In this document: piece by piece, positions 1-7,841 of the stretch
Layout of the letters: each line of letters starts with the position of its first letter
Position numbering within the stretch: the stretch's first letter is position 1
Source: a virus
Lineage: Duplodnaviria; Heunggongvirae; Uroviricota; Caudoviricetes
Strand: one strand, 5' to 3'
Virus record (IMG/VR): IMGVR_UViG_2648501873_000011
DNA: 7,841 nt
Program-made: the position numbers and the translations under genes
Notes under the pieces: model-generated
The model's input: only the letters and a program-made list of their open reading frames with translations
What the model was told of the DNA's origin: nothing
Databases searched by the model: none

Positions 1-750
1 TCACTGATCTCCTTCGGTCAACGGAGATTGTATTTTCCGCATTGATTCTCCTTTAAGTTCGATCTTGATACTGCCATGAACCAGTCGATCTAGGATGGCA
101 TCCGCATGTGTGGAGTCTCCGATCATTTTGTACCAGTTTTCCACCGGCAACTGGCTCACTACGATGATTGAGCCTCGTTGGTACATCAGATCCACTATTT
201 CCAGCAGGTCGCTACGCTGTTCTGATGAGAGAGGTTCCAGCCCCCAGTCATCCAGAAGCAGCAGATCGCTATTATTCAGCCTGGTCAAAAGTTTGCTGTA
301 TCTTCCATCAGCATGCCCCTGATAGCACTGTTCCATCAGCGCTTTAAGGCGATAATAGTAGACCTTGTATCCCTGTCGGCAGGCATTATGACCAAGTGCA
401 CATGCCAGGAACGTTTTACCGCTGCCGGTGGCCCCGGTCAGTAAAATATTTTGTTTCAGGGTTAACCAGTTTCCCTGACTGAGTGAACGGATGAGGGCCC
501 TGTCCAGCCCTCTATTGTTACGATAATCCAGCTTTGATAACTCAGCATTAAGTCTGAACCGTGCATGTTTGATCAGACGCTCTGCCTTCCTGTTTTCACG
601 GCAGGTTAGTTCTTCTGCTGTCAGTAATGACAGGCGTTCTTCGAAGCCCAGCTCCTGGTATGTGCCCGGTTGAGCAAGTTGCTTTTTAAGCGCATCACGG
701 AAGCCGGTGAGTTTAAGTGCGGTCAGTTGTTCGTAAAGATGATTCATCAT
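1..750 (-). CDS. istB: IS21-family transposition helper ATPase IstB (AAA+ family, DnaC-like)
   Basis: 249-aa ORF with Walker A GATGSGKT and Walker B LLLLDDWG. Starts 11 nt after the istA stop (ATGATG at 745-750 on the minus strand); stop codon TGA at 1-3 (minus strand), so the ORF is complete. Confidence 0.9.
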   Translation of the reverse strand: MMNHLYEQLTALKLTGFRDALKKQLAQPGTYQELGFEERLSLLTAEELTCRENRKAERLIKHARFRLNAELSKLDYRNNRGLDRALIRSLSQGNWLTLKQNILLTGATGSGKTFLACALGHNACRQGYKVYYYRLKALMEQCYQGHADGRYSKLLTRLNNSDLLLLDDWGLEPLSSEQRSDLLEIVDLMYQRGSIIVVSQLPVENWYKMIGDSTHADAILDRLVHGSIKIELKGESMRKIQSPLTEGDQ

Positions 751-761
751 TGGATCCCGTA

Positions 762-2303
762 TCAGTGGTAATACTCACTGCCGCGTACGTTTTCGTGTTC
801 CATCGTGGATAACAGATCTGGTTTTGGATCCTGAACAGGTTGTTTATCCAGACCTTTTTCCAGGATCGATTTAATACCTGACAGACGCCATACCTTTGTT
901 TTCAGAGCTCTTGCACATGCTGCATTAAGTCTGGCTTTACTGTATTTTTTATGAAGGTTCAGGAGTCCAAGGCAGAAGCGATAGCTTTGTTCCGGATGTG
1001 GACGAGAGTTCAGTATATGAAGCACATAACTATGAGTTTCACTGCCTATGTGCCCCGCCCATTCCAGAAGACGCTCTGGCGTCCAGGTGGCATGCTGTCG
1101 ATGAGCTTCAGGCATGTGCTCGTTGCGGGTACTGTAGCCATAAGTACGCTTGCGCGGGTGCACAGCAACCTCCTGCCCCTGATTGAAGAGTCTTACCAGT
1201 TCTCCGGAGATCCATGCTTCCAGTTGCTGGCCTAACAGCGAACATGGAACCGAGTAGTAATGTTTGTCGATTTCCACGTGGTAATCGGCATGAACTCTGA
1301 CTTTCTTCACCAGGGTGTAACTGTAACTGGCTTCAGGAAGAGGCTTCAGTGCGGGTTTATCAAGCTGGATGAAGAGTTCTGCACGTGAATAACCCAACTT
1401 CTGCATTATTTTGTTATTCAGTCTTTCCAGCAACTCCCGAATGCGCTGATTAAGCGATGCAAGGCTGTAGAAGATCTCATGCCTGATTCGGGCCATGATC
1501 CAGCGTTCAACAACCTGAACGCCAACTTCAGCTTTGGCTTTATCTTTCGGTTTACGTGGCCGCGCAGGCAAAACTGCGACATTATAATGCTCAAGCATCT
1601 GCTGGTAGGTAGGGTTAACGTCAGGATCATACTTACATGCCCTGGATGTGGCGCTTTTCAGATTGTCCGGAACAACAAGTTCAGGAACGCCACCCAACCA
1701 CTGGAAGCAGCGAACATGACTCATCACCCAGTCTTCAAGCTGCTGAGACCAGGTGGCCTCTGCCCATGTGTAACTTGATGCCCCGAGAACAGCTACGATG
1801 ACCTGAGCAGTTCTTATTTCTCCGGTCTCAGGGTCGGTAACGCCAACGGTAGGTCCACAGTAATCAACGAAAAGTTTTTCGCCAGCTTTATGTACCTGAC
1901 GCATTGATGGTGAAGTGGTTTTGAGCCATTCACGGTACATCCGGCAGTAATGGTTATAGCTGTAAAAACCGCCTGGATTACGCTCACAGTATTCTTCCCA
2001 GAGTAGCTGCAGCGTCACGCATTTATTACGCAGTTCCCGGTGTACTGTAGCCCAGTCAGGCAGAGAGTGCTTCTTCATCTTAACCTGGGTCTGAAGGAAC
2101 GCATGTTTTAGTTTTGTATCATCCCATCCTGTAGGTAAGGGCCACTGCTTTATGCCAAGTTGAGCCGCCCGATTAGCATATCTGGATACAACGGAAGGGG
2201 AGATTGCAAGACTACGACCAATTTGTCGATGGCTGAGTCCAACACCGTATTTAAGCCTAAGAATTTCTTTAAGTTTTCTCATAGAAATTGGAACTGTTGG
2301 CAT
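762..2303 (-). CDS. istA: IS21-family transposase IstA (N-terminal HTH plus DDE integrase-like core)
   Basis: 513-aa ORF. N-terminal HTH-like segment (LKYGVGLSHRQIGRSLAISPSVVSRYANRA). Central region with conserved acidic residues (FVDYCGP ... VVPDN ...) consistent with a DDE core. AAGGA Shine-Dalgarno about 5 nt upstream of the ATG on the minus strand. Immediately followed by istB. Confidence 0.9.
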   Translation of the reverse strand: MPTVPISMRKLKEILRLKYGVGLSHRQIGRSLAISPSVVSRYANRAAQLGIKQWPLPTGWDDTKLKHAFLQTQVKMKKHSLPDWATVHRELRNKCVTLQLLWEEYCERNPGGFYSYNHYCRMYREWLKTTSPSMRQVHKAGEKLFVDYCGPTVGVTDPETGEIRTAQVIVAVLGASSYTWAEATWSQQLEDWVMSHVRCFQWLGGVPELVVPDNLKSATSRACKYDPDVNPTYQQMLEHYNVAVLPARPRKPKDKAKAEVGVQVVERWIMARIRHEIFYSLASLNQRIRELLERLNNKIMQKLGYSRAELFIQLDKPALKPLPEASYSYTLVKKVRVHADYHVEIDKHYYSVPCSLLGQQLEAWISGELVRLFNQGQEVAVHPRKRTYGYSTRNEHMPEAHRQHATWTPERLLEWAGHIGSETHSYVLHILNSRPHPEQSYRFCLGLLNLHKKYSKARLNAACARALKTKVWRLSGIKSILEKGLDKQPVQDPKPDLLSTMEHENVRGSEYYH

Positions 2304-2370
2304 AGGTATCCTTTACCGGAATGGCAAAAGATACAGATCAACACACCTGTGAAGTTCCAATAACATTGAT

Positions 2371-2479
2371 GGAGATCACTGAATAACAAAATGAGTCAAA
2401 AGTGATCTCCATCGATGTTATTCAGCGATCTGTTCAAATGTTATTACCCGATCTCGATGGAAGTTATTGAGTGATCTCC
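2371..2479. repeat. Multiple terminal repeats of the IS (putative IstA binding sites), in both orientations
   Basis: GGAGATCACTGAATAAC at 2371-2387; AGTGATCTCC at 2401-2410 (perfect inverted partner of 2371-2380); GTTATTCAGCGATC at 2417-2430; degenerate GTTATTACCCGATCTCG at 2440-2456; GTTATTGAGTGATCTCC at 2463-2479. Five GATC sites fall inside these copies. Confidence 0.7.
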
Positions 2480-2483
2480 TTTC

Positions 2484-2960
2484 ATGAAAATACGCAATCA
2501 GGGCGTCGCGAAGTCCGTCACGCTGCCAAAACTGACCCGTAAGCTCGAAAACTATCGCGGTGCGGGGATGAACGGCAGCGCACCGGTAGACCTCGGCCTT
2601 GATGACGATGCGCTGTCAATGGAGTGGTCGCTCGGGGGCTTCCCGGATTCGGTTATCTGGGAACTTTACGCCGCAACCGGTGTGGATGCCGTGCCGATTC
2701 GTTTTGCAGGCTCTTACCAGCGTGACGATACCGGCGAAACGGTGGCCGTCGAAGTGGTCATGCGTGGCCGTCAGAAAGAAATCGACACCGGCGAGGGTAA
2801 ACAGGGAGAAGACACCGAGTCGAAAATCTCCGTGGTCTGCACCTATTTCCGGCTGACGATGGACGGTAAGGAGCTGGTCGAAATTGACACCATCAACATG
2901 ATTGAGAAGGTGAACGGCGTCGACCGGCTGGAGCAACACCGCCGCAATATCGGCCTGTGA
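2484..2960 (+). pseudogene. FII: Phage P2-type major tail tube protein FII, 5'-truncated by the IS insertion. The ORF start and first ~5 codons (MKIRN) are IS/junction-derived; phage-derived coding sequence begins at ~2497-2499.
   Basis: From QGVAKSVTLPKLTRKLENYRGAGMNG onward the translation matches P2-family tail tube protein through to the C-terminus (..DRLEQHRRNIGL). The conserved N-terminal ~15-20 residues of the family are absent. By recall intact P2 FII is ~172 aa, against 158 aa here. No Shine-Dalgarno precedes the ATG at 2484. Confidence 0.8.
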
Positions 2961-2967
2961 TTTTCAT

Positions 2968-2988
2968 CCGGTCAGCCTGGCTGACCGG
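2968..2988 (+). other. Intergenic inverted repeat (possible RNA stem-loop) between FII and E
   Basis: CCGGTCAG-CCTGG-CTGACCGG: 8-bp perfect stem with a 5-nt loop, starting 8 nt after the FII stop. No U-tract follows, so it is not a canonical intrinsic terminator. Confidence 0.3.
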
Positions 2989-3016
2989 TTAACCCTGATT
3001 CAGAAGTGAGAAAACC

Positions 3017-3292
3017 ATGAACAAAGAAAATGTGATTACCCTGGACAATCCGGTCAAGCGTGGTGAGCAGGTTATCGAACAGGTCACGCTGATGAAACCC
3101 AATGCCGGGACGCTGCGCGGTGTCAGTCTGGCTGCGGTCGCAAACTCCGAAGTCGATGCACTGATTAAAGTGCTGCCGCGCATGACGGCACCGATGCTGA
3201 CTGAGCAGGAGGTCGCCGCGCTGGAGCTGCCTGACCTTGTGGCGCTGGCCGGTAAGGTGGTCGGTTTTTTGTCGCCGAACTCGGTGCAGTAA
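3017..3292 (+). CDS. E: Phage P2-type tail assembly chaperone E
   Basis: 91-aa ORF (MNKENVITLDNPVKRGEQ...) in the position of P2 gene E between FII and T. It ends shortly after a TTTTTTG slippery site. Confidence 0.9.
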   Translation: MNKENVITLDNPVKRGEQVIEQVTLMKPNAGTLRGVSLAAVANSEVDALIKVLPRMTAPMLTEQEVAALELPDLVALAGKVVGFLSPNSVQ

Positions 3293-3444
3293 CGTTTCCG
3301 AAAAATCTCTCGGTCGATGACCTGATGGCGGATGTGGCAGTGATATTTCACTGGCCGCCATCAGAACTGTATCCCATGAGCCTGACCGAACTCATCACAT
3401 GGCGCGAAAAGGCGCTCCGGCGAAGCGGAAACACGAATGAGTAA
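3017..3444 (+). CDS. E+E': Tail assembly chaperone E+E', made by programmed -1 ribosomal frameshift at T TTT TTG (3265-3271)
   Basis: Manual translation of the -1 frame after the slippery heptamer gives ...GFFVAELGAVTFPKNLSVDDLMADVAVIFHWPPSELYPMSLTELITWREKALRRSGNTNE, with stop TAA at 3442-3444. The fusion is 142 aa, the length recalled for P2 E+E'. The -1 frame has no ATG, which is why no separate ORF appears in the track. Confidence 0.8.
3265..3271 (+). promoter_or_regulatory. -1 programmed frameshift slippery heptamer (X XXY YYZ = T TTT TTG)
   Basis: Six Ts followed by G, positioned in the E reading frame as GGT TTT TTG; the downstream -1 frame stays open for 57 codons to 3444. Confidence 0.8.
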
Positions 3445-5884
3445 CAATGTAAAATTACAGGTATTGCTCAGGGCTGTTGACCAGGCATCCCGCCCGTTTA
3501 AATCCATCCGCACAGCGAGTAAGTCGCTGTCGGGGGATATCCGGGAAACACAAAAATCACTGCGCGAGCTGAACGGTCACGCATCCCGTATTGAGGGATT
3601 TCGCAAGACCAGCGCACAGCTTGCCGTGACTGGTCATGCACTTGAAAAGGCACGGCAGGAAGCCGAAGCACTTGCCACACAGTTTAAAAACACTGAACGT
3701 CCGACCCGTGCTCAGGCGAAAGTGCTGGAATCCGCAAAGCGTGCGGCGGAGGACTTACAGGCGAAATATAACCGCCTGACGGATTCCGTTAAGCGCCAGC
3801 AGCGGGAACTGGCCGCTGTGGGAATTAATACCCGCAATCTTGCACATGATGAGCAGGGACTGAAAAACCGTATCAGTGAAACCACCGCACAGCTTAACCG
3901 GCAGCGTGACGCGCTGGCGCGTGTCAGTGCGCAACAGGCAAAACTTAATGCAGTAAAACAGCGTTATCAGGCCGGAAAGGAACTGGCCGGAAATATGGCC
4001 TCAGTGGGCGCTGCCGGTGTGGGGATTGCGGCGGCGGGAACGATGGCCGGAGTTAAGTTGCTGATGCCCGGTTATGAGTTTGCGCAGAAAAACTCAGAAT
4101 TGCAGGCCGTGCTCGGAGTGGCAAAAGACTCCGCCGAAATGACCGCACTACGCAAACAGGCGCGCCAGCTCGGCGACAATACCGCCGCCTCGGCGGATGA
4201 TGCGGCCGGTGCACAGATAATCATCGCGAAAGCGGGTGGGGATGTTGATGCCATTCAGGCGGCAACGCCGGTCACGCTGAATATGGCGCTGGCGAACCGC
4301 CGCACGATGGAAGAAAACGCCGCCCTGCTGATGGGGATGAAATCCGCCTTTCAGCTTTCAAACGATAAGGTCGCTCATATCGGGGATGTTCTCTCCATGA
4401 CGATGAACAAAACCGCCGCCGATTTTGACGGCATGAGCGATGCGCTGACCTATGCCGCACCTGTGGCAAAAAATGCCGGTGTCAGCATTGAAGAAACCGC
4501 CGCAATGGTCGGGGCGCTGCATGATGCAAAAATCACAGGCTCAATGGCGGGGACGGGAAGCCGTGCCGTGTTAAGCCGCCTGCAGGCACCGACGGGAAAA
4601 GCATGGGATGCACTCAAAGAGCTTGGAGTGAAAACCTCAGACAGCAAGGGAAACACCCGGCCAATATTTACCATTCTGAAAGAAATGCAGGCCAGTTTTG
4701 AGAAAAACCGGCTCGGTACTGCCCAGCAGGCTGAATACATGAAAACCATTTTCGGGGAGGAGGCCAGCTCAGCCGCCGCCGTGCTGATGACTGCCGCCTC
4801 AACCGGAAAGCTGGACAAACTGACCGCTGCGTTTAAAGCCTCAGACGGGAAGACCGCCGAGCTGGTAAATATCATGCAGGACAACCTCGGCGGTGACTTT
4901 AAAGAGTTTCAGTCCGCTTATGAGGCGGTGGGGACTGACCTGTTTGACCAGCAGGAAGGCGCACTGCGTAAGCTCACGCAGACGGCCACAAAGTATGTGT
5001 TAAAACTCGACGGCTGGATCCAGAAAAACAAATCACTGGCGTCAACCATCGGCCTCATTGCCGGTGGCGCACTGGCGCTTACTGGCATCATCGGTGCCAT
5101 TGGTCTTGTAGCCTGGCCGGTTATCACCGGCATCAATGCCATCATTGCTGCAGCAGGCGCAATGGGGGCAATTTTCACGACGGTTGGCAGTGCCGTTATG
5201 ACGGCCATCGGGGCGATTAGCTGGCCGGTAGTGGCCGTGGTGGCCGCCATTGTCGCCGGAGCGTTACTTATCCGTAAATACTGGGAGCCTGTCAGCGCAT
5301 TCTTTGGCGGTGTGGTGGAAGGGCTGAAAGCGGCATTTGCGCCGGTGGGAGAACTGTTCACGCCACTTAAGCCGGTGTTTGACTGGCTGGGTGAAAAGTT
5401 ACAGGCTGCGTGGCAGTGGTTTAAAAACCTGATTGCCCCGGTCAAAGCCACCCAGGACACCCTGAACCGTTGCCGTGACACGGGCGTCATGTTCGGGCAG
5501 GCACTGGCTGACGCGCTGATGCTGCCGCTTAATGCGTTCAACAAATTACGCAGCGGCATTGACTGGGTACTGGAAAAGCTCGGGTTCATCAACAAAGAGT
5601 CAGACACACTTGACCAGACAGCCGCCAGAACTCATGCCGCCACGTATGGCACCGGTGGTTATATTCCGGCGACCAGCTCTTATGCAGGTTATCAGGCTTA
5701 TCAGCCGGTTACGGCACCGGCTGGCCGCTCTTATGTGGACCAGAGTAAAAACGAATATCACATCAGCCTGACGGGTGGTACTGCGCCGGGGACACAGCTT
5801 GACCGCCAGTTACAGGATGCGCTCGAAAAATACGAGCGGGATAAACGTGCGCGCGCCCGTGCCAGCATGATGCATGACGGTTAA
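3437..5884 (+). CDS. T: Phage P2-type tail tape measure protein T
   Basis: 815-aa ORF directly after E/E'. The N-terminal ~180 residues are rich in heptad-like charged/Ala/Leu/Gln sequence (coiled-coil character). A long Gly/Ala/Ile hydrophobic segment (LASTIGLIAGGALALTGIIGAIGLVAWPVITGINAIIAAAGAMGAIFTT...ALLIRKYW, about nt 5036-5285) is typical of tape measure proteins. Confidence 0.92.
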   Translation: MSNNVKLQVLLRAVDQASRPFKSIRTASKSLSGDIRETQKSLRELNGHASRIEGFRKTSAQLAVTGHALEKARQEAEALATQFKNTERPTRAQAKVLESAKRAAEDLQAKYNRLTDSVKRQQRELAAVGINTRNLAHDEQGLKNRISETTAQLNRQRDALARVSAQQAKLNAVKQRYQAGKELAGNMASVGAAGVGIAAAGTMAGVKLLMPGYEFAQKNSELQAVLGVAKDSAEMTALRKQARQLGDNTAASADDAAGAQIIIAKAGGDVDAIQAATPVTLNMALANRRTMEENAALLMGMKSAFQLSNDKVAHIGDVLSMTMNKTAADFDGMSDALTYAAPVAKNAGVSIEETAAMVGALHDAKITGSMAGTGSRAVLSRLQAPTGKAWDALKELGVKTSDSKGNTRPIFTILKEMQASFEKNRLGTAQQAEYMKTIFGEEASSAAAVLMTAASTGKLDKLTAAFKASDGKTAELVNIMQDNLGGDFKEFQSAYEAVGTDLFDQQEGALRKLTQTATKYVLKLDGWIQKNKSLASTIGLIAGGALALTGIIGAIGLVAWPVITGINAIIAAAGAMGAIFTTVGSAVMTAIGAISWPVVAVVAAIVAGALLIRKYWEPVSAFFGGVVEGLKAAFAPVGELFTPLKPVFDWLGEKLQAAWQWFKNLIAPVKATQDTLNRCRDTGVMFGQALADALMLPLNAFNKLRSGIDWVLEKLGFINKESDTLDQTAARTHAATYGTGGYIPATSSYAGYQAYQPVTAPAGRSYVDQSKNEYHISLTGGTAPGTQLDRQLQDALEKYERDKRARARASMMHDG

Positions 5885-5898
5885 GGAGGTGATGAAAA

Positions 5899-6378
5899 AT
5901 GATGCTCGCGTTAGGGATGTTTGTTTTTATGCGCCAGACGCTGCCACACCAGACCATGCAGCGTGAATCAGATTATCGCTGGCCGTCAAATTCCCGTATC
6001 GGTAAACGGGATGCCTACCAGTTTCTAGGTGTGGGTGAGGAAAACATGACGCTTGCCGGTGTGCTTTATCCCGAACTGACCGGCGGCAAGCTGACGATGA
6101 CCACGCTCAGACTGATGGCAGAGGAAGGCCGGGCGTGGCCGTTGCTGGATGGCACCGGCATGATTTACGGTATGTATGTCATCAGCAAGGTGAGTGAAAC
6201 AGGGAGTATTTTCTTTGCCGACGGCACACCCCGGAAAATTGATTTTACGCTGTCACTTACCCGCGTTGATGAATCACTGGCCGCGCTTTATGGCGATATC
6301 GGTAAACAGGCGGAATCGCTCATCGGTAAGGCGGGCAGTATGGCAACTAAATTCACGGGTATGACGGGGGCGGGATAA
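5899..6378 (+). CDS. U: Phage P2-type tail protein U
   Basis: 159-aa ORF (MMLALGMFVFMRQTLPHQ...). Strong Shine-Dalgarno AAGGAGGTGA at 5883-5892. Lies between T and D as in P2. Confidence 0.85.
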   Translation: MMLALGMFVFMRQTLPHQTMQRESDYRWPSNSRIGKRDAYQFLGVGEENMTLAGVLYPELTGGKLTMTTLRLMAEEGRAWPLLDGTGMIYGMYVISKVSETGSIFFADGTPRKIDFTLSLTRVDESLAALYGDIGKQAESLIGKAGSMATKFTGMTGAG

Positions 6379-7541
6379 TGCTGGATACGCTGACATTTGA
6401 TGCAGGCAGTACGCTGACGCCGGATTACATGCTGATGCTCGACAGCAGGGATATTACCGGCAATATCAGCGACCGTCTGATGAGCATGACCCTGACGGAT
6501 AACCGGGGCTTTGAGGCTGACCAGCTTGATATTGAACTGAACGATGCCGACGGGCAGGTCGGGCTGCCGGTTCGTGGCGCTGTCCTGACGGTGTATATCG
6601 GCTGGAAAGGGTTTGCCCTGGTATGCAAAGGGAAATTTACCGTTGATGAGGTTGAACACCGGGGCGCGCCGGATGTGGTCACCATCCGTGCCCGGAGTGC
6701 AGATTTTCGCGGGACGCTCAATTCCCGCCGGGAAGGCTCATGGCATGACACCACGCTCGGTGCGATTGTTGAGGCGATAGCCTCCCGTAACAGGCTGGAA
6801 GCCAGTGTCGCTCCGTCACTGGCCGGAATTAAAATCCCGCACATCGACCAGTCGCAGGAGTCTGATGCGAAATTTCTGACCCGTCTTGCAGAACGCAACG
6901 GCGGTGAGGTGTCGGTAAAAATGGGAAAACTGTTGTTTCTCAAAGCGGGGCAGGGGGGGACGGCCAGCGGTAAAAAAATCCCGCAGATTACCATCACCCG
7001 CAGCGACGGTGACCGTCATCATTTTGCGATTGCTGACCGTGGAGCCTATACCGGCGTAACGGCAAAGTGGCTTCACACCAAAGACCCGAAGCCACAAAAG
7101 CAGAAGGTAAAACTGAAACGCAAAAAGAAAGAGAAACACCTGCGCGCACTGGAGCACCCGAAAGCGAAACCGGTCACGCAGAAGAAAGCGCCAAAAGCAC
7201 CGGAAGCGCGCGAAGGTGAATACATGGCAGGTGAAGCTGACAACGTTTTTGCCCTGACCACGGTATATGCCACAAAAGCGCAGGCTATGCGTGCCGCTCA
7301 GGCGAAGTGGGATAAACTGCAACGGGGCGTTGCGGAGTTCTCCATCATCCTGGCTACCGGTCGTGCAGATATTTACACGGAAACACCGGTCAGAGTGTCA
7401 GGCTTTAAGCGCGTCATAGACGAGCAGGACTGGACAATCACTAAGGTGACACATTTTCTGAATAATAGCGGCTTCACGACGTCCTTAGAGCTTGAGGTCA
7501 GGCTTTCTGATGTGGAGTACGAAACAGAAGATTATGAGTGA
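6378..7541 (+). CDS. D: Phage P2-type tail/baseplate protein D (phage late control gene D family; gp27/VgrG-N-like hub)
   Basis: 387-aa ORF (MLDTLTFDAGSTLTPDYMLMLDSRDITGNISDRL...). Its start overlaps the U stop (TAATG at 6375-6380). Contains a lysine-rich basic stretch at about nt 7078-7215. Confidence 0.9.
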   Translation: MLDTLTFDAGSTLTPDYMLMLDSRDITGNISDRLMSMTLTDNRGFEADQLDIELNDADGQVGLPVRGAVLTVYIGWKGFALVCKGKFTVDEVEHRGAPDVVTIRARSADFRGTLNSRREGSWHDTTLGAIVEAIASRNRLEASVAPSLAGIKIPHIDQSQESDAKFLTRLAERNGGEVSVKMGKLLFLKAGQGGTASGKKIPQITITRSDGDRHHFAIADRGAYTGVTAKWLHTKDPKPQKQKVKLKRKKKEKHLRALEHPKAKPVTQKKAPKAPEAREGEYMAGEADNVFALTTVYATKAQAMRAAQAKWDKLQRGVAEFSIILATGRADIYTETPVRVSGFKRVIDEQDWTITKVTHFLNNSGFTTSLELEVRLSDVEYETEDYE

Positions 7542-7559
7542 TGTATTTTGTTTATCTGT

Positions 7560-7588
7560 TTGTTTTATAAGGATAAATTAACTAAAAT
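7560..7588 (+). promoter_or_regulatory. Putative sigma70-type promoter for ogr (-35 TTGTTT 7560-7565, 17-bp spacer, -10 TAAAAT 7583-7588)
   Basis: Hexamers read directly from the AT-rich D-ogr intergenic region; P2 ogr is known to have its own promoter. Not validated. Confidence 0.3.
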
Positions 7589-7622
7589 GGCACTATCAAC
7601 AAAACCGGAAGAGGTGCTCGCG

Positions 7623-7841
7623 ATGTTTCATTGTCCTTTATGCCAGCATGCCGCACATGCGCGTACAAGCCGCTATATCACTGACACGACAAAAGAGCGT
7701 TATCACCAGTGTCAGAACGTGAATTGCAGCGCCACGTTCATCACCTATGAGTCGGTACAGAGATACATCGTGAAGCCGGGAGAAGTCCACGCCGTAAGGC
7801 CGCACCCGTTGCCGTCAGGGCAGCAAATTATGTGGATGTGA
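7623..7841 (+). CDS. ogr: Phage P2-type late gene transcriptional activator Ogr (C4 zinc-finger protein)
   Basis: 72-aa ORF MFHCPLCQHAAHARTSRYITDTTKERYHQCQNVNCSATFITYESVQRYIVKPGEVHAVRPHPLPSGQQIMWM, with the CxxC...CxxxxC zinc-binding arrangement. Shine-Dalgarno GGAAGAGG lies 8 nt upstream of the ATG at 7623. The stop TGA is at 7839-7841, the window end. Confidence 0.9.
   Translation: MFHCPLCQHAAHARTSRYITDTTKERYHQCQNVNCSATFITYESVQRYIVKPGEVHAVRPHPLPSGQQIMWM

Follow-up and report, generated by a model that had tools for sequence, protein, structure and literature searches.

The analysed window, a stretch of 7,841 bp, consists of two parts. Positions 1-2496 represent an insertion sequence, ISEc12 of the IS21 family, whose sense strand corresponds to the minus strand of the window. 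From position 2497 onwards, we identified the late region of a P2-like prophage, composed of a remnant of gene FII, a gene for a tape measure protein of 815 aa and other ORFs of this region. The genes relevant to this analysis are as follows.

1-750, minus strand: istB, encoding an AAA+ helper ATPase of 249 aa (Pfam IstB_IS21, E = 2e-67); the stop codon is at 1-3
762-2303, minus strand: istA, encoding an IS21-family DDE transposase of 513 aa (Pfam rve and Mu-transpos_C_2)
2497-2960, plus strand: remnant of FII, the P2-like gene of the major tail tube, split by ISEc12, covering only positions 17-165 of the Pfam Phage_tube profile and delimited by alignment to an intact FII gene

The preliminary description of this DNA had assigned the element to the IS21 family and left the naming of the specific IS to a database search. 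When positions 1-2500 were compared (megablast) with complete E. coli genomes, we obtained 100% matches annotated as IS21-like element ISEc12 family transposase and helper ATPase. The RefSeq annotation of istA and istB on these identical copies, together with the Pfam domains rve and IstB_IS21, confirmed the family assignment and identified the element as the catalogued ISEc12. In agreement with the gene organization of this family, istA (DDE, with an N-terminal HTH) is directly followed by istB (AAA+). The full length of ISEc12 is 2581 bp, and other copies of the element are bordered by target duplications of 5 bp (ACCAG, GTCAT) or 7 bp (ATCAGAC), that is, within the range of 4-8 bp used to define the family. 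ISEc12 is very common in E. coli: matches were found by megablast in 1836 of 5426 complete genomes, and in 1363 of them most of the query was matched. Prophage, adhesin and secretion genes are disrupted by its copies.

Alignment with an intact FII gene placed the insertion point of ISEc12 after about codon 19. An ATG located in the tip of the IS (position 2484) opens a fusion ORF of 158 aa (2484-2960, plus strand), which continues in frame into the truncated FII. The insertion would thus leave an N-terminally altered FII, if expressed. The exact junction between the IS and FII seen in the window had no single-piece match in the 5426 complete E. coli genomes.

Within the region 2371-2479, the preliminary description had noted an array of repeats in both orientations, five GATC sites and a perfect 10-bp inverted pair, and had considered this region to be the IS terminus. 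We confirmed the five GATCs (starting at 2374, 2404, 2427, 2450 and 2473) and, using a repeat finder, the array itself, which is composed of four direct copies (2401, 2424, 2447 and 2470), spaced by exactly 23, 23 and 23 bp, and one inverted copy. The array is indeed located at the left end of ISEc12, but the tip of the element lies at position 2496 (...AATACGCA), 17 bp beyond 2479; this is the limit of the sequence conserved among five independent insertions (the junction in the window and four others). The array had also been placed upstream of istA. With this gene on the minus strand (762-2303), the repeats are located between its start and the tip of the IS.

In the IS sense, the left end reads TGCGTATTTTCATGAAA, GGAGATCACTCAATAACTTCCAT, CGAGATCGGGTAATAACATTTGA, ACAGATCGCTGAATAACATCGAT and GGAGATCACTTTTGAC..., followed by the inverted copy GTTATTCAGTGATCTCCATCAATGTTATT, with the box-associated GATCs at IS positions 21, 44, 67, 90 and 120. 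Each repeat unit is built of two boxes, one of the AATAAC type and one with the sequence (G)AGATC(A/G)(C/G). The following elements were distinguished.

2480-2496, minus strand: left tip (IS positions 1-17), TGCGTATTTTCATGAAA, which starts with 5'-TG and contains a degenerate AATAAC-type box
2471-2493, minus strand: unit L1 in the IS5376 register, the tip-proximal box plus the GATC box GGAGATCAC (GATC at 2473-2476)
2448-2470, minus strand: unit L2, an AATAAC box (GTTATT on the plus strand, 2463-2468) plus the GATC box GAGATCGG (GATC at 2450-2453)
2425-2447, minus strand: unit L3, an AATAAC box plus the GATC box CAGATCGC (GATC at 2427-2430)
2402-2424, minus strand: unit L4, an AATAAC box plus the GATC box GGAGATCAC (GATC at 2404-2407), followed by CACTTTT
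2382-2387, plus strand: an extra AATAAC box beyond the inverted unit
2359-2381, plus strand: inverted unit Li, with AATAAC at 2359-2364, a spacer and GGAGATCAC at 2371-2379 (GATC at 2374-2377)
2336-2339: a sixth GATC (IS position 158), belonging to none of the repeats and located in the istA leader (untranslated) or promoter region

The 10-bp inverted pair (2371-2380 / 2401-2410) proved to be perfect, as had been described, and to extend to 22 nt with 95% complementarity (2359-2380 / 2401-2422), so that Li and L4 together form a 22-nt, 95% palindrome upstream of istA. The sixth GATC is shared with L005 and L006, the two closest relatives of ISEc12, and is absent from more distant ones. The GATCs in the interior of the IS (window positions 61-1625) showed no resemblance to the units described above.

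The number of GATCs had been judged to be far above chance. Their clustering is real, but by count it is moderately unusual (p about 0.01), since 21 of 2000 shuffles of the window that preserved dinucleotides contained at least five GATCs within 109 bp. The weight of the argument rests on the exact 23-bp phasing and on conservation: of 30 distinct left ends from related elements, 26 retain GATC at IS positions 21, 44, 67 and 90. A logo of units centred on GATC is circular with respect to the GATC columns, and we relied instead on extraction of the units by register.

The occurrence of multiple terminal repeats had been interpreted in the preliminary description as the IstA-binding architecture of IS21-family ends, and the repeats of ISEc12 fit this architecture, including the published spacing. 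The cryo-EM study of IS5376 IstA describes IS21 ends as carrying direct repeats (L1/L2 and R1/R2) "separated by 23 bp", each of which contains a pair of conserved boxes (CS1 and CS2) at a distance of about 10 bp (PMC10122671). In IS5376, the major groove of CS1 is contacted by HTH-2 of IstA (T92, K95) and that of CS2 by HTH-1 (R31, K32); the catalytic subunits occupy the first repeat and the structural subunits the second (PMC10122671).

The two boxes of ISEc12 were assigned by their distance from the tip. CS1 and CS2 of IS5376 are centred 9.5 and 23.5 bp from it; the corresponding distances in ISEc12 are approx. 9 bp for the degenerate box in the tip and 22.5 bp for the first GATC. Because these distances match, the GATC box would correspond to CS2 and the AATAAC box to CS1, and by analogy with IS5376 we infer that HTH-1 reads the former and HTH-2 the latter. 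This register also explains the apparent lack of a second box in the last direct unit. An alternative alignment of the GATC box with CS1 of IS5376 (GCCGAT compared with GCCGATC) was dropped, as the distance from the tip places GATC at CS2. Significant direct alignment of the two IstA proteins is confined to residues 107-391. A weak HMM profile alignment, which is not statistically significant on its own, places R31/K32 of IS5376 on P36/S37 of ISEc12, and this mapping is tentative.

ISEc12 shares with IS21 (L1-L3/R1-R2) and IS5376 the TG...CA tips, direct repeats of approx. 23 bp, the two-box composition of each repeat and the overlap of the ends with the region upstream of istA. It differs in the sequence of the boxes (AATAAC and GATC in ISEc12, GCCG and CCCCA in IS5376) and in the number of units: ISEc12 and its relatives carry four direct units and one inverted unit at the left end and two, sometimes three, direct units plus one inverted unit at the right end, whereas two units per end have been characterized in IS5376. 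The ends of Mu (L1-L3/R1-R3) and Tn7 likewise contain several transposase sites, unequal in number between the ends, with accessory sites beyond the catalytic ones. The DNA-binding domains, spacing and helper proteins of Mu and Tn7 differ from those of ISEc12, and the likeness is limited to the design.

The right end of ISEc12 lies outside the window and was read from other copies of the element, where its sequence is TGCGTATTACCGTGAAG GAGATCGGTGAGTAAC ATCGATG GAGATCGG... Two direct units, R1 and R2, are located about 85 bp outside the window. One right-end feature falls inside it.

3-13: inverted right-end GATC box CACTGATCTCC (the GGAGATCAGTG box), overlapping the last codons of istB

The box-associated GATCs of the right end are at IS positions 2488, 2536 and 2559, which gives eight end-associated GATCs located in boxes of the left and right ends; the ninth, at IS position 158, is outside them. 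In four or five independent insertions, the element starts and ends with TG...CA (left tip TGCGTATTTTCATG..., right tip TGCGTATTACCGTG..., both read inward), and its termini form imperfect inverted repeats. Both ends of ISEc12 are thus built of the same two boxes, AATAAC-type and GATC, arranged in subterminal direct repeats of approx. 23 bp (four units on the left, two on the right).

A protein search with IstA revealed thousands of relatives. Scanning one genome per species, we collected, among the matches listed, at least 80 loci with IstA identities of 49-93%. In every locus whose tip was contained in the fetched stretch, the left end begins with TGC(A/G)TATT and follows the 17 + 23n register, and in several relatives the element's own second-box sequence is repeated in the tip (e.g., ATTCTCA, ATTCCGG). 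Positions 4-7 of the unit are occupied by a lineage-specific tetranucleotide: GATC, GAAC, GACC, GTCC, GGCC, GAGC or T(G/T)CC. The tetranucleotide typical of a class is the same at the right ends of the relatives as at their left ends, and the inverted copy is found at the same place in relatives of all core classes. These classes are given for loci with visible repeats, to the exclusion of L044, L056, L058, L083 and L084, whose labels in the tree come from their neighbours.

GATC was present in 36 of 36 loci of the clade with at least about 55% IstA identity, among the matches listed. The hosts of this main GATC clade are Enterobacter, Kosakonia, E. coli, Motilimonas, Algibacillus, Pseudoalteromonas, Psychromonas, Colwellia, Paraglaciecola, Shewanella, Psychrobium, Aeromonas media and a few MAGs. 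The GAAC core was found in Marinobacter, Marinomonas, Zhongshania, Aeromonas salmonicida (L063) and others, the GACC core in Halomonas, Salinicola and Marinobacter bryozoorum, and the GTCC, GGCC, GAGC and T(G/T)CC cores in various MAGs and Ectothiorhodospira. A second GATC group (L066, L069, L070, L072 and L081), binned to Cellvibrionales, Oceanospirillales and other MAGs, is nested in the GAAC clade.

More distant elements carry comparable arrays. The ISSso4-like element of an E. coli IncF plasmid (L085, positions 1000-1304; 47% identity) has five direct repeats with a spacing of approx. 23 bp and a GATC in each, and an element of a Klebsiella pneumoniae IncC plasmid (L086, positions 1000-1298; 44% identity) has five CGGCCA(C/G) repeats; the left end of IS21 proper contains no GATC. 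Copies of the motif lacking GATC in related IS21-family elements, which the preliminary description had named as evidence against a role of Dam methylation, were found in relatives with at most about 54% IstA identity (GAAC, GACC, GTCC, GGCC and GAGC cores) and were absent from all sampled relatives with at least about 55%. As the distant relatives carry other cores at the identical position, GATC is not required for the architecture.

Two further features of these ends were observed. Irrespective of the core class, nearly all relatives (L005-L082) carry the sequence CACTTTT (window 2395-2403 in ISEc12) after their last direct unit; it is followed by a short variable spacer and then by the inverted unit, and the TTTT tract between L4 and Li is conserved. 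The left ends of L064, L071 and L077 mix GTCC and GACC cores within one end, which suggests that their IstA, with His at residue 36, tolerates either base at position 2 of the core.

We then compared the core classes with the N-terminal part of IstA. Only four N-terminal columns separate the second GATC group from its GAAC neighbours, and one of them is residue 36, the first residue of the recognition helix of HTH-1 (...LAIS-PSVVSRY...), which is Pro36 in ISEc12 (codon at window positions 2196-2198, minus strand). Over the whole tree, residue 36 tracks the core class almost one-to-one.

GATC core: P, A or S (main clade and the ISSso4-like element)
GATC core: Y (second GATC group)
GAAC core: V, T, I or L
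GACC core: K
GTCC and T(G/T)CC cores: H
GGCC core: R (three lineages, including the distant Klebsiella element)
GAGC core: T

The relation is not strictly one-to-one, since T is also found in three GAAC elements (L040, L042 and L068). Two of the combinations, R with GGCC and A with GATC, were encountered again in distant lineages. Because residue 36 tracks the core, GATC would be a specificity core read by IstA and not an addition to the binding site. The comparison of sequences thus points to IstA directly reading the two central bases of the core, GATC being one setting of a variable specificity position, and the way in which residue 36 follows the central dinucleotide of G-N-N-C constitutes a candidate specificity code.

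The direct observations comprise the anatomy of the ends and its conservation, the agreement of the left and right boxes, and the covariation between IstA and the core. Taken together with what is known of the family, they make it highly probable that the array represents the left-end docking sites of IstA in ISEc12, and that GATC is the core recognized by HTH-1 in this lineage. Binding of the units by IstA is inferred from knowledge of the family and from the covariation; the presence of the same boxes at the right end and the covariation with an HTH residue of IstA lend further support to the IstA-binding architecture.

By analogy with the IS5376 cryo-EM structure, HTH-1 of IstA would contact the GATC box through the major groove, the AATAAC box being read by HTH-2, and IstA bound to L1/L2 and R1/R2 would form a tetrameric synaptic complex. 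The middle two bases of the G-N-N-C core would be read by residue 36 (Pro, Ala or Ser in the clade), GATC being a lineage-specific version of this core that was presumably not added for the sake of methylation. Units L3, L4 and Li, which are conserved in all core classes, may serve as accessory sites that probably account for the inequality of the two ends and allow IstA to be positioned over the leader of istA. IstA would then occupy the region just upstream of istA, an arrangement reminiscent of the promoter occlusion proposed for IS21 (PMC10122671).

Such docking sites have to be weighed against other explanations of the array. Chance clustering of GATCs in an AT-rich leader, without function and without any relation to binding by the transposase, would agree with the GATC count taken alone, but not with the exact phasing, the same boxes at the right end, the four positions conserved in most left ends or the covariation of the core with residue 36; it is already contradicted by these comparative data, and we give it practically no credence. 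Sequestration by SeqA is known at oriC and at the dnaA promoter, and SeqA tolerates GATC spacings of up to about 31 bp. The five phased GATCs of the left end, spaced by 23-30 bp within about 100 bp, might recruit SeqA in the hemimethylated state after passage of the fork, which would hide the end or delay its remethylation; the discussion of PMC8826520 describes binding of SeqA to pairs of hemimethylated GATCs via flexible linkers. However, 23 bp corresponds to 2.2 helical turns, which places neighbouring sites on different faces of the helix, and the spacing is fully explained by the architecture of IstA binding and is identical in relatives with other cores. We therefore regard a role of SeqA as improbable.

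An adaptive role of Dam is harder to dismiss, although we consider it unlikely. Methylation of the GATCs in the boxes would control the binding of IstA, and transposition would occur only in, or be set off by, DNA still hemimethylated after replication, the principle known from IS10 and IS50 being extended to all docking sites of both ends. Eight of the nine end-associated GATCs of ISEc12 sit in putative IstA boxes, at both ends, and GATC is invariant throughout the clade with at least about 55% identity while the flanking bases drift. The cultured hosts of the main clade belong to Enterobacterales, Alteromonadales and Aeromonas, which are Dam/SeqA/MutH orders, and the separate GATC lineage of the ISSso4-like element, with the small residue Ala at position 36, is also enteric. 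A "Dam cohort" is cited in PMC8826520. Against this, one or two evolutionary events essentially account for the association between clade and hosts, the MAGs carrying the second GATC group fall outside the classical Dam orders, and relatives lacking GATC are found in Dam-type hosts (L063 with GAAC, L086 with GGCC, as well as the GATC-free left end of IS21). The core is equally invariant in every other class, so that invariance is not specific to GATC, and for this reason the conservation of GATC within the clade can be attributed to ordinary protein-DNA co-evolution. Two or three GATC lineages, a number that is approximate because the tree is a simple neighbour-joining one, are at most weakly above chance (a rough estimate, with approx. 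8-10 classes and a prior of 1/16). Moreover, the search for a GATC in a recognizable istA promoter was negative, the extra GATC at 2336 is shared with the closest relatives alone, and literature searches revealed no link between IS21 and Dam.

It appears similarly unlikely that IstA of the ISEc12 clade evolved to read Dam-methylated GATC, the small residue 36 accommodating the N6-methyls in the major groove and the IstA of the Tyr36 group reading the unmethylated site. If this were true, docking at both ends would depend on methylation, and IS21-family transposition would be coupled to replication or to the Dam status of the host; to our knowledge, control by methylation state has so far been shown only for elements of the IS4 and IS5 families.

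The preliminary description had raised the possibility that Dam methylation modulates end recognition or istA expression. Our data neither support nor refute Dam control of ISEc12. GATC sites in E. coli are Dam-methylated unless protected, and in the docking-site model proposed above the methyl groups would fall inside the IstA-DNA interface, in the groove read by HTH-1, which makes an effect of methylation on IstA binding, in either direction, plausible. A promoter scan of positions 2200-2520 revealed no sigma-70-like promoter, hence there is no overlap of a GATC with a promoter to claim. Literature searches combining the IS21 family or IstA with Dam or GATC methylation yielded no report linking them; two apparent matches were irrelevant.

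According to PMC9296519, Dam control has been demonstrated experimentally for IS10 (Tn10), IS50 (Tn5) and IS903, which carry one or two GATCs, in the transposase promoter and in one end. ISEc12 shares with these elements a Dam+ host and the location of GATC within an end sequence that is bound (in ISEc12, putatively) by the transposase. It differs from them in that every docking site, left or right, has GATC as its core, and no GATC is evident in the promoter. The RctB iterons at ori2 of Vibrio cholerae are a methylation-dependent array with embedded GATCs (PMC8826520). The phased repeats, each with a GATC and bound by a protein (IstA being the presumed one in ISEc12), are common to both systems, but the iterons are initiator sites of a replication origin with a demonstrated requirement for methylation, whereas the ISEc12 array belongs to a transposon end.

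Part of this picture is already known: ISEc12 is a catalogued element, and ends with multiple repeats spaced by 23 bp are textbook knowledge for the IS21 family. We did not find in the literature the near one-to-one correspondence of residue 36 with the central bases of G-N-N-C, or a Dam site serving as the core of every docking position at both ends throughout one large clade. The bases read by IstA help to define end recognition in the IS21 family beyond the sole available structure, that of IS5376. Should the Dam state alter the binding of IstA, replication-coupled control of transposition would extend to a family with an AAA+ helper, which would explain how so common an element is kept in check. 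Should it have no effect, GATC would be a coincidence of specificity and the finding an ordinary one.

The active form of IS21 is a tandem or circle junction. A circular record of Klebsiella pneumoniae described as a "plasmid" (L089; NZ_CP079815.1) is 2581 bp long and consists of exactly one ISEc12 with abutted tips, differing from the E. coli copy by one mismatch. This record represents either an excised IS circle captured by the assembly or an assembly artefact.

The two parts of the window also differ in their overall GATC content. The IS part (1-2496) contains 21 GATCs, compared with an expected 10.5 +/- 3.0, a number reached in 1 of 1000 dinucleotide shuffles. In the prophage part (2497-7841), there is one GATC (at 5017) in 5345 bp, compared with an expected 18.1 +/- 3.8, and none of 1000 dinucleotide shuffles gave a value as low. 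The prophage part thus shows strong GATC avoidance; scarcity of GATC in enterobacterial phages has been reported before.
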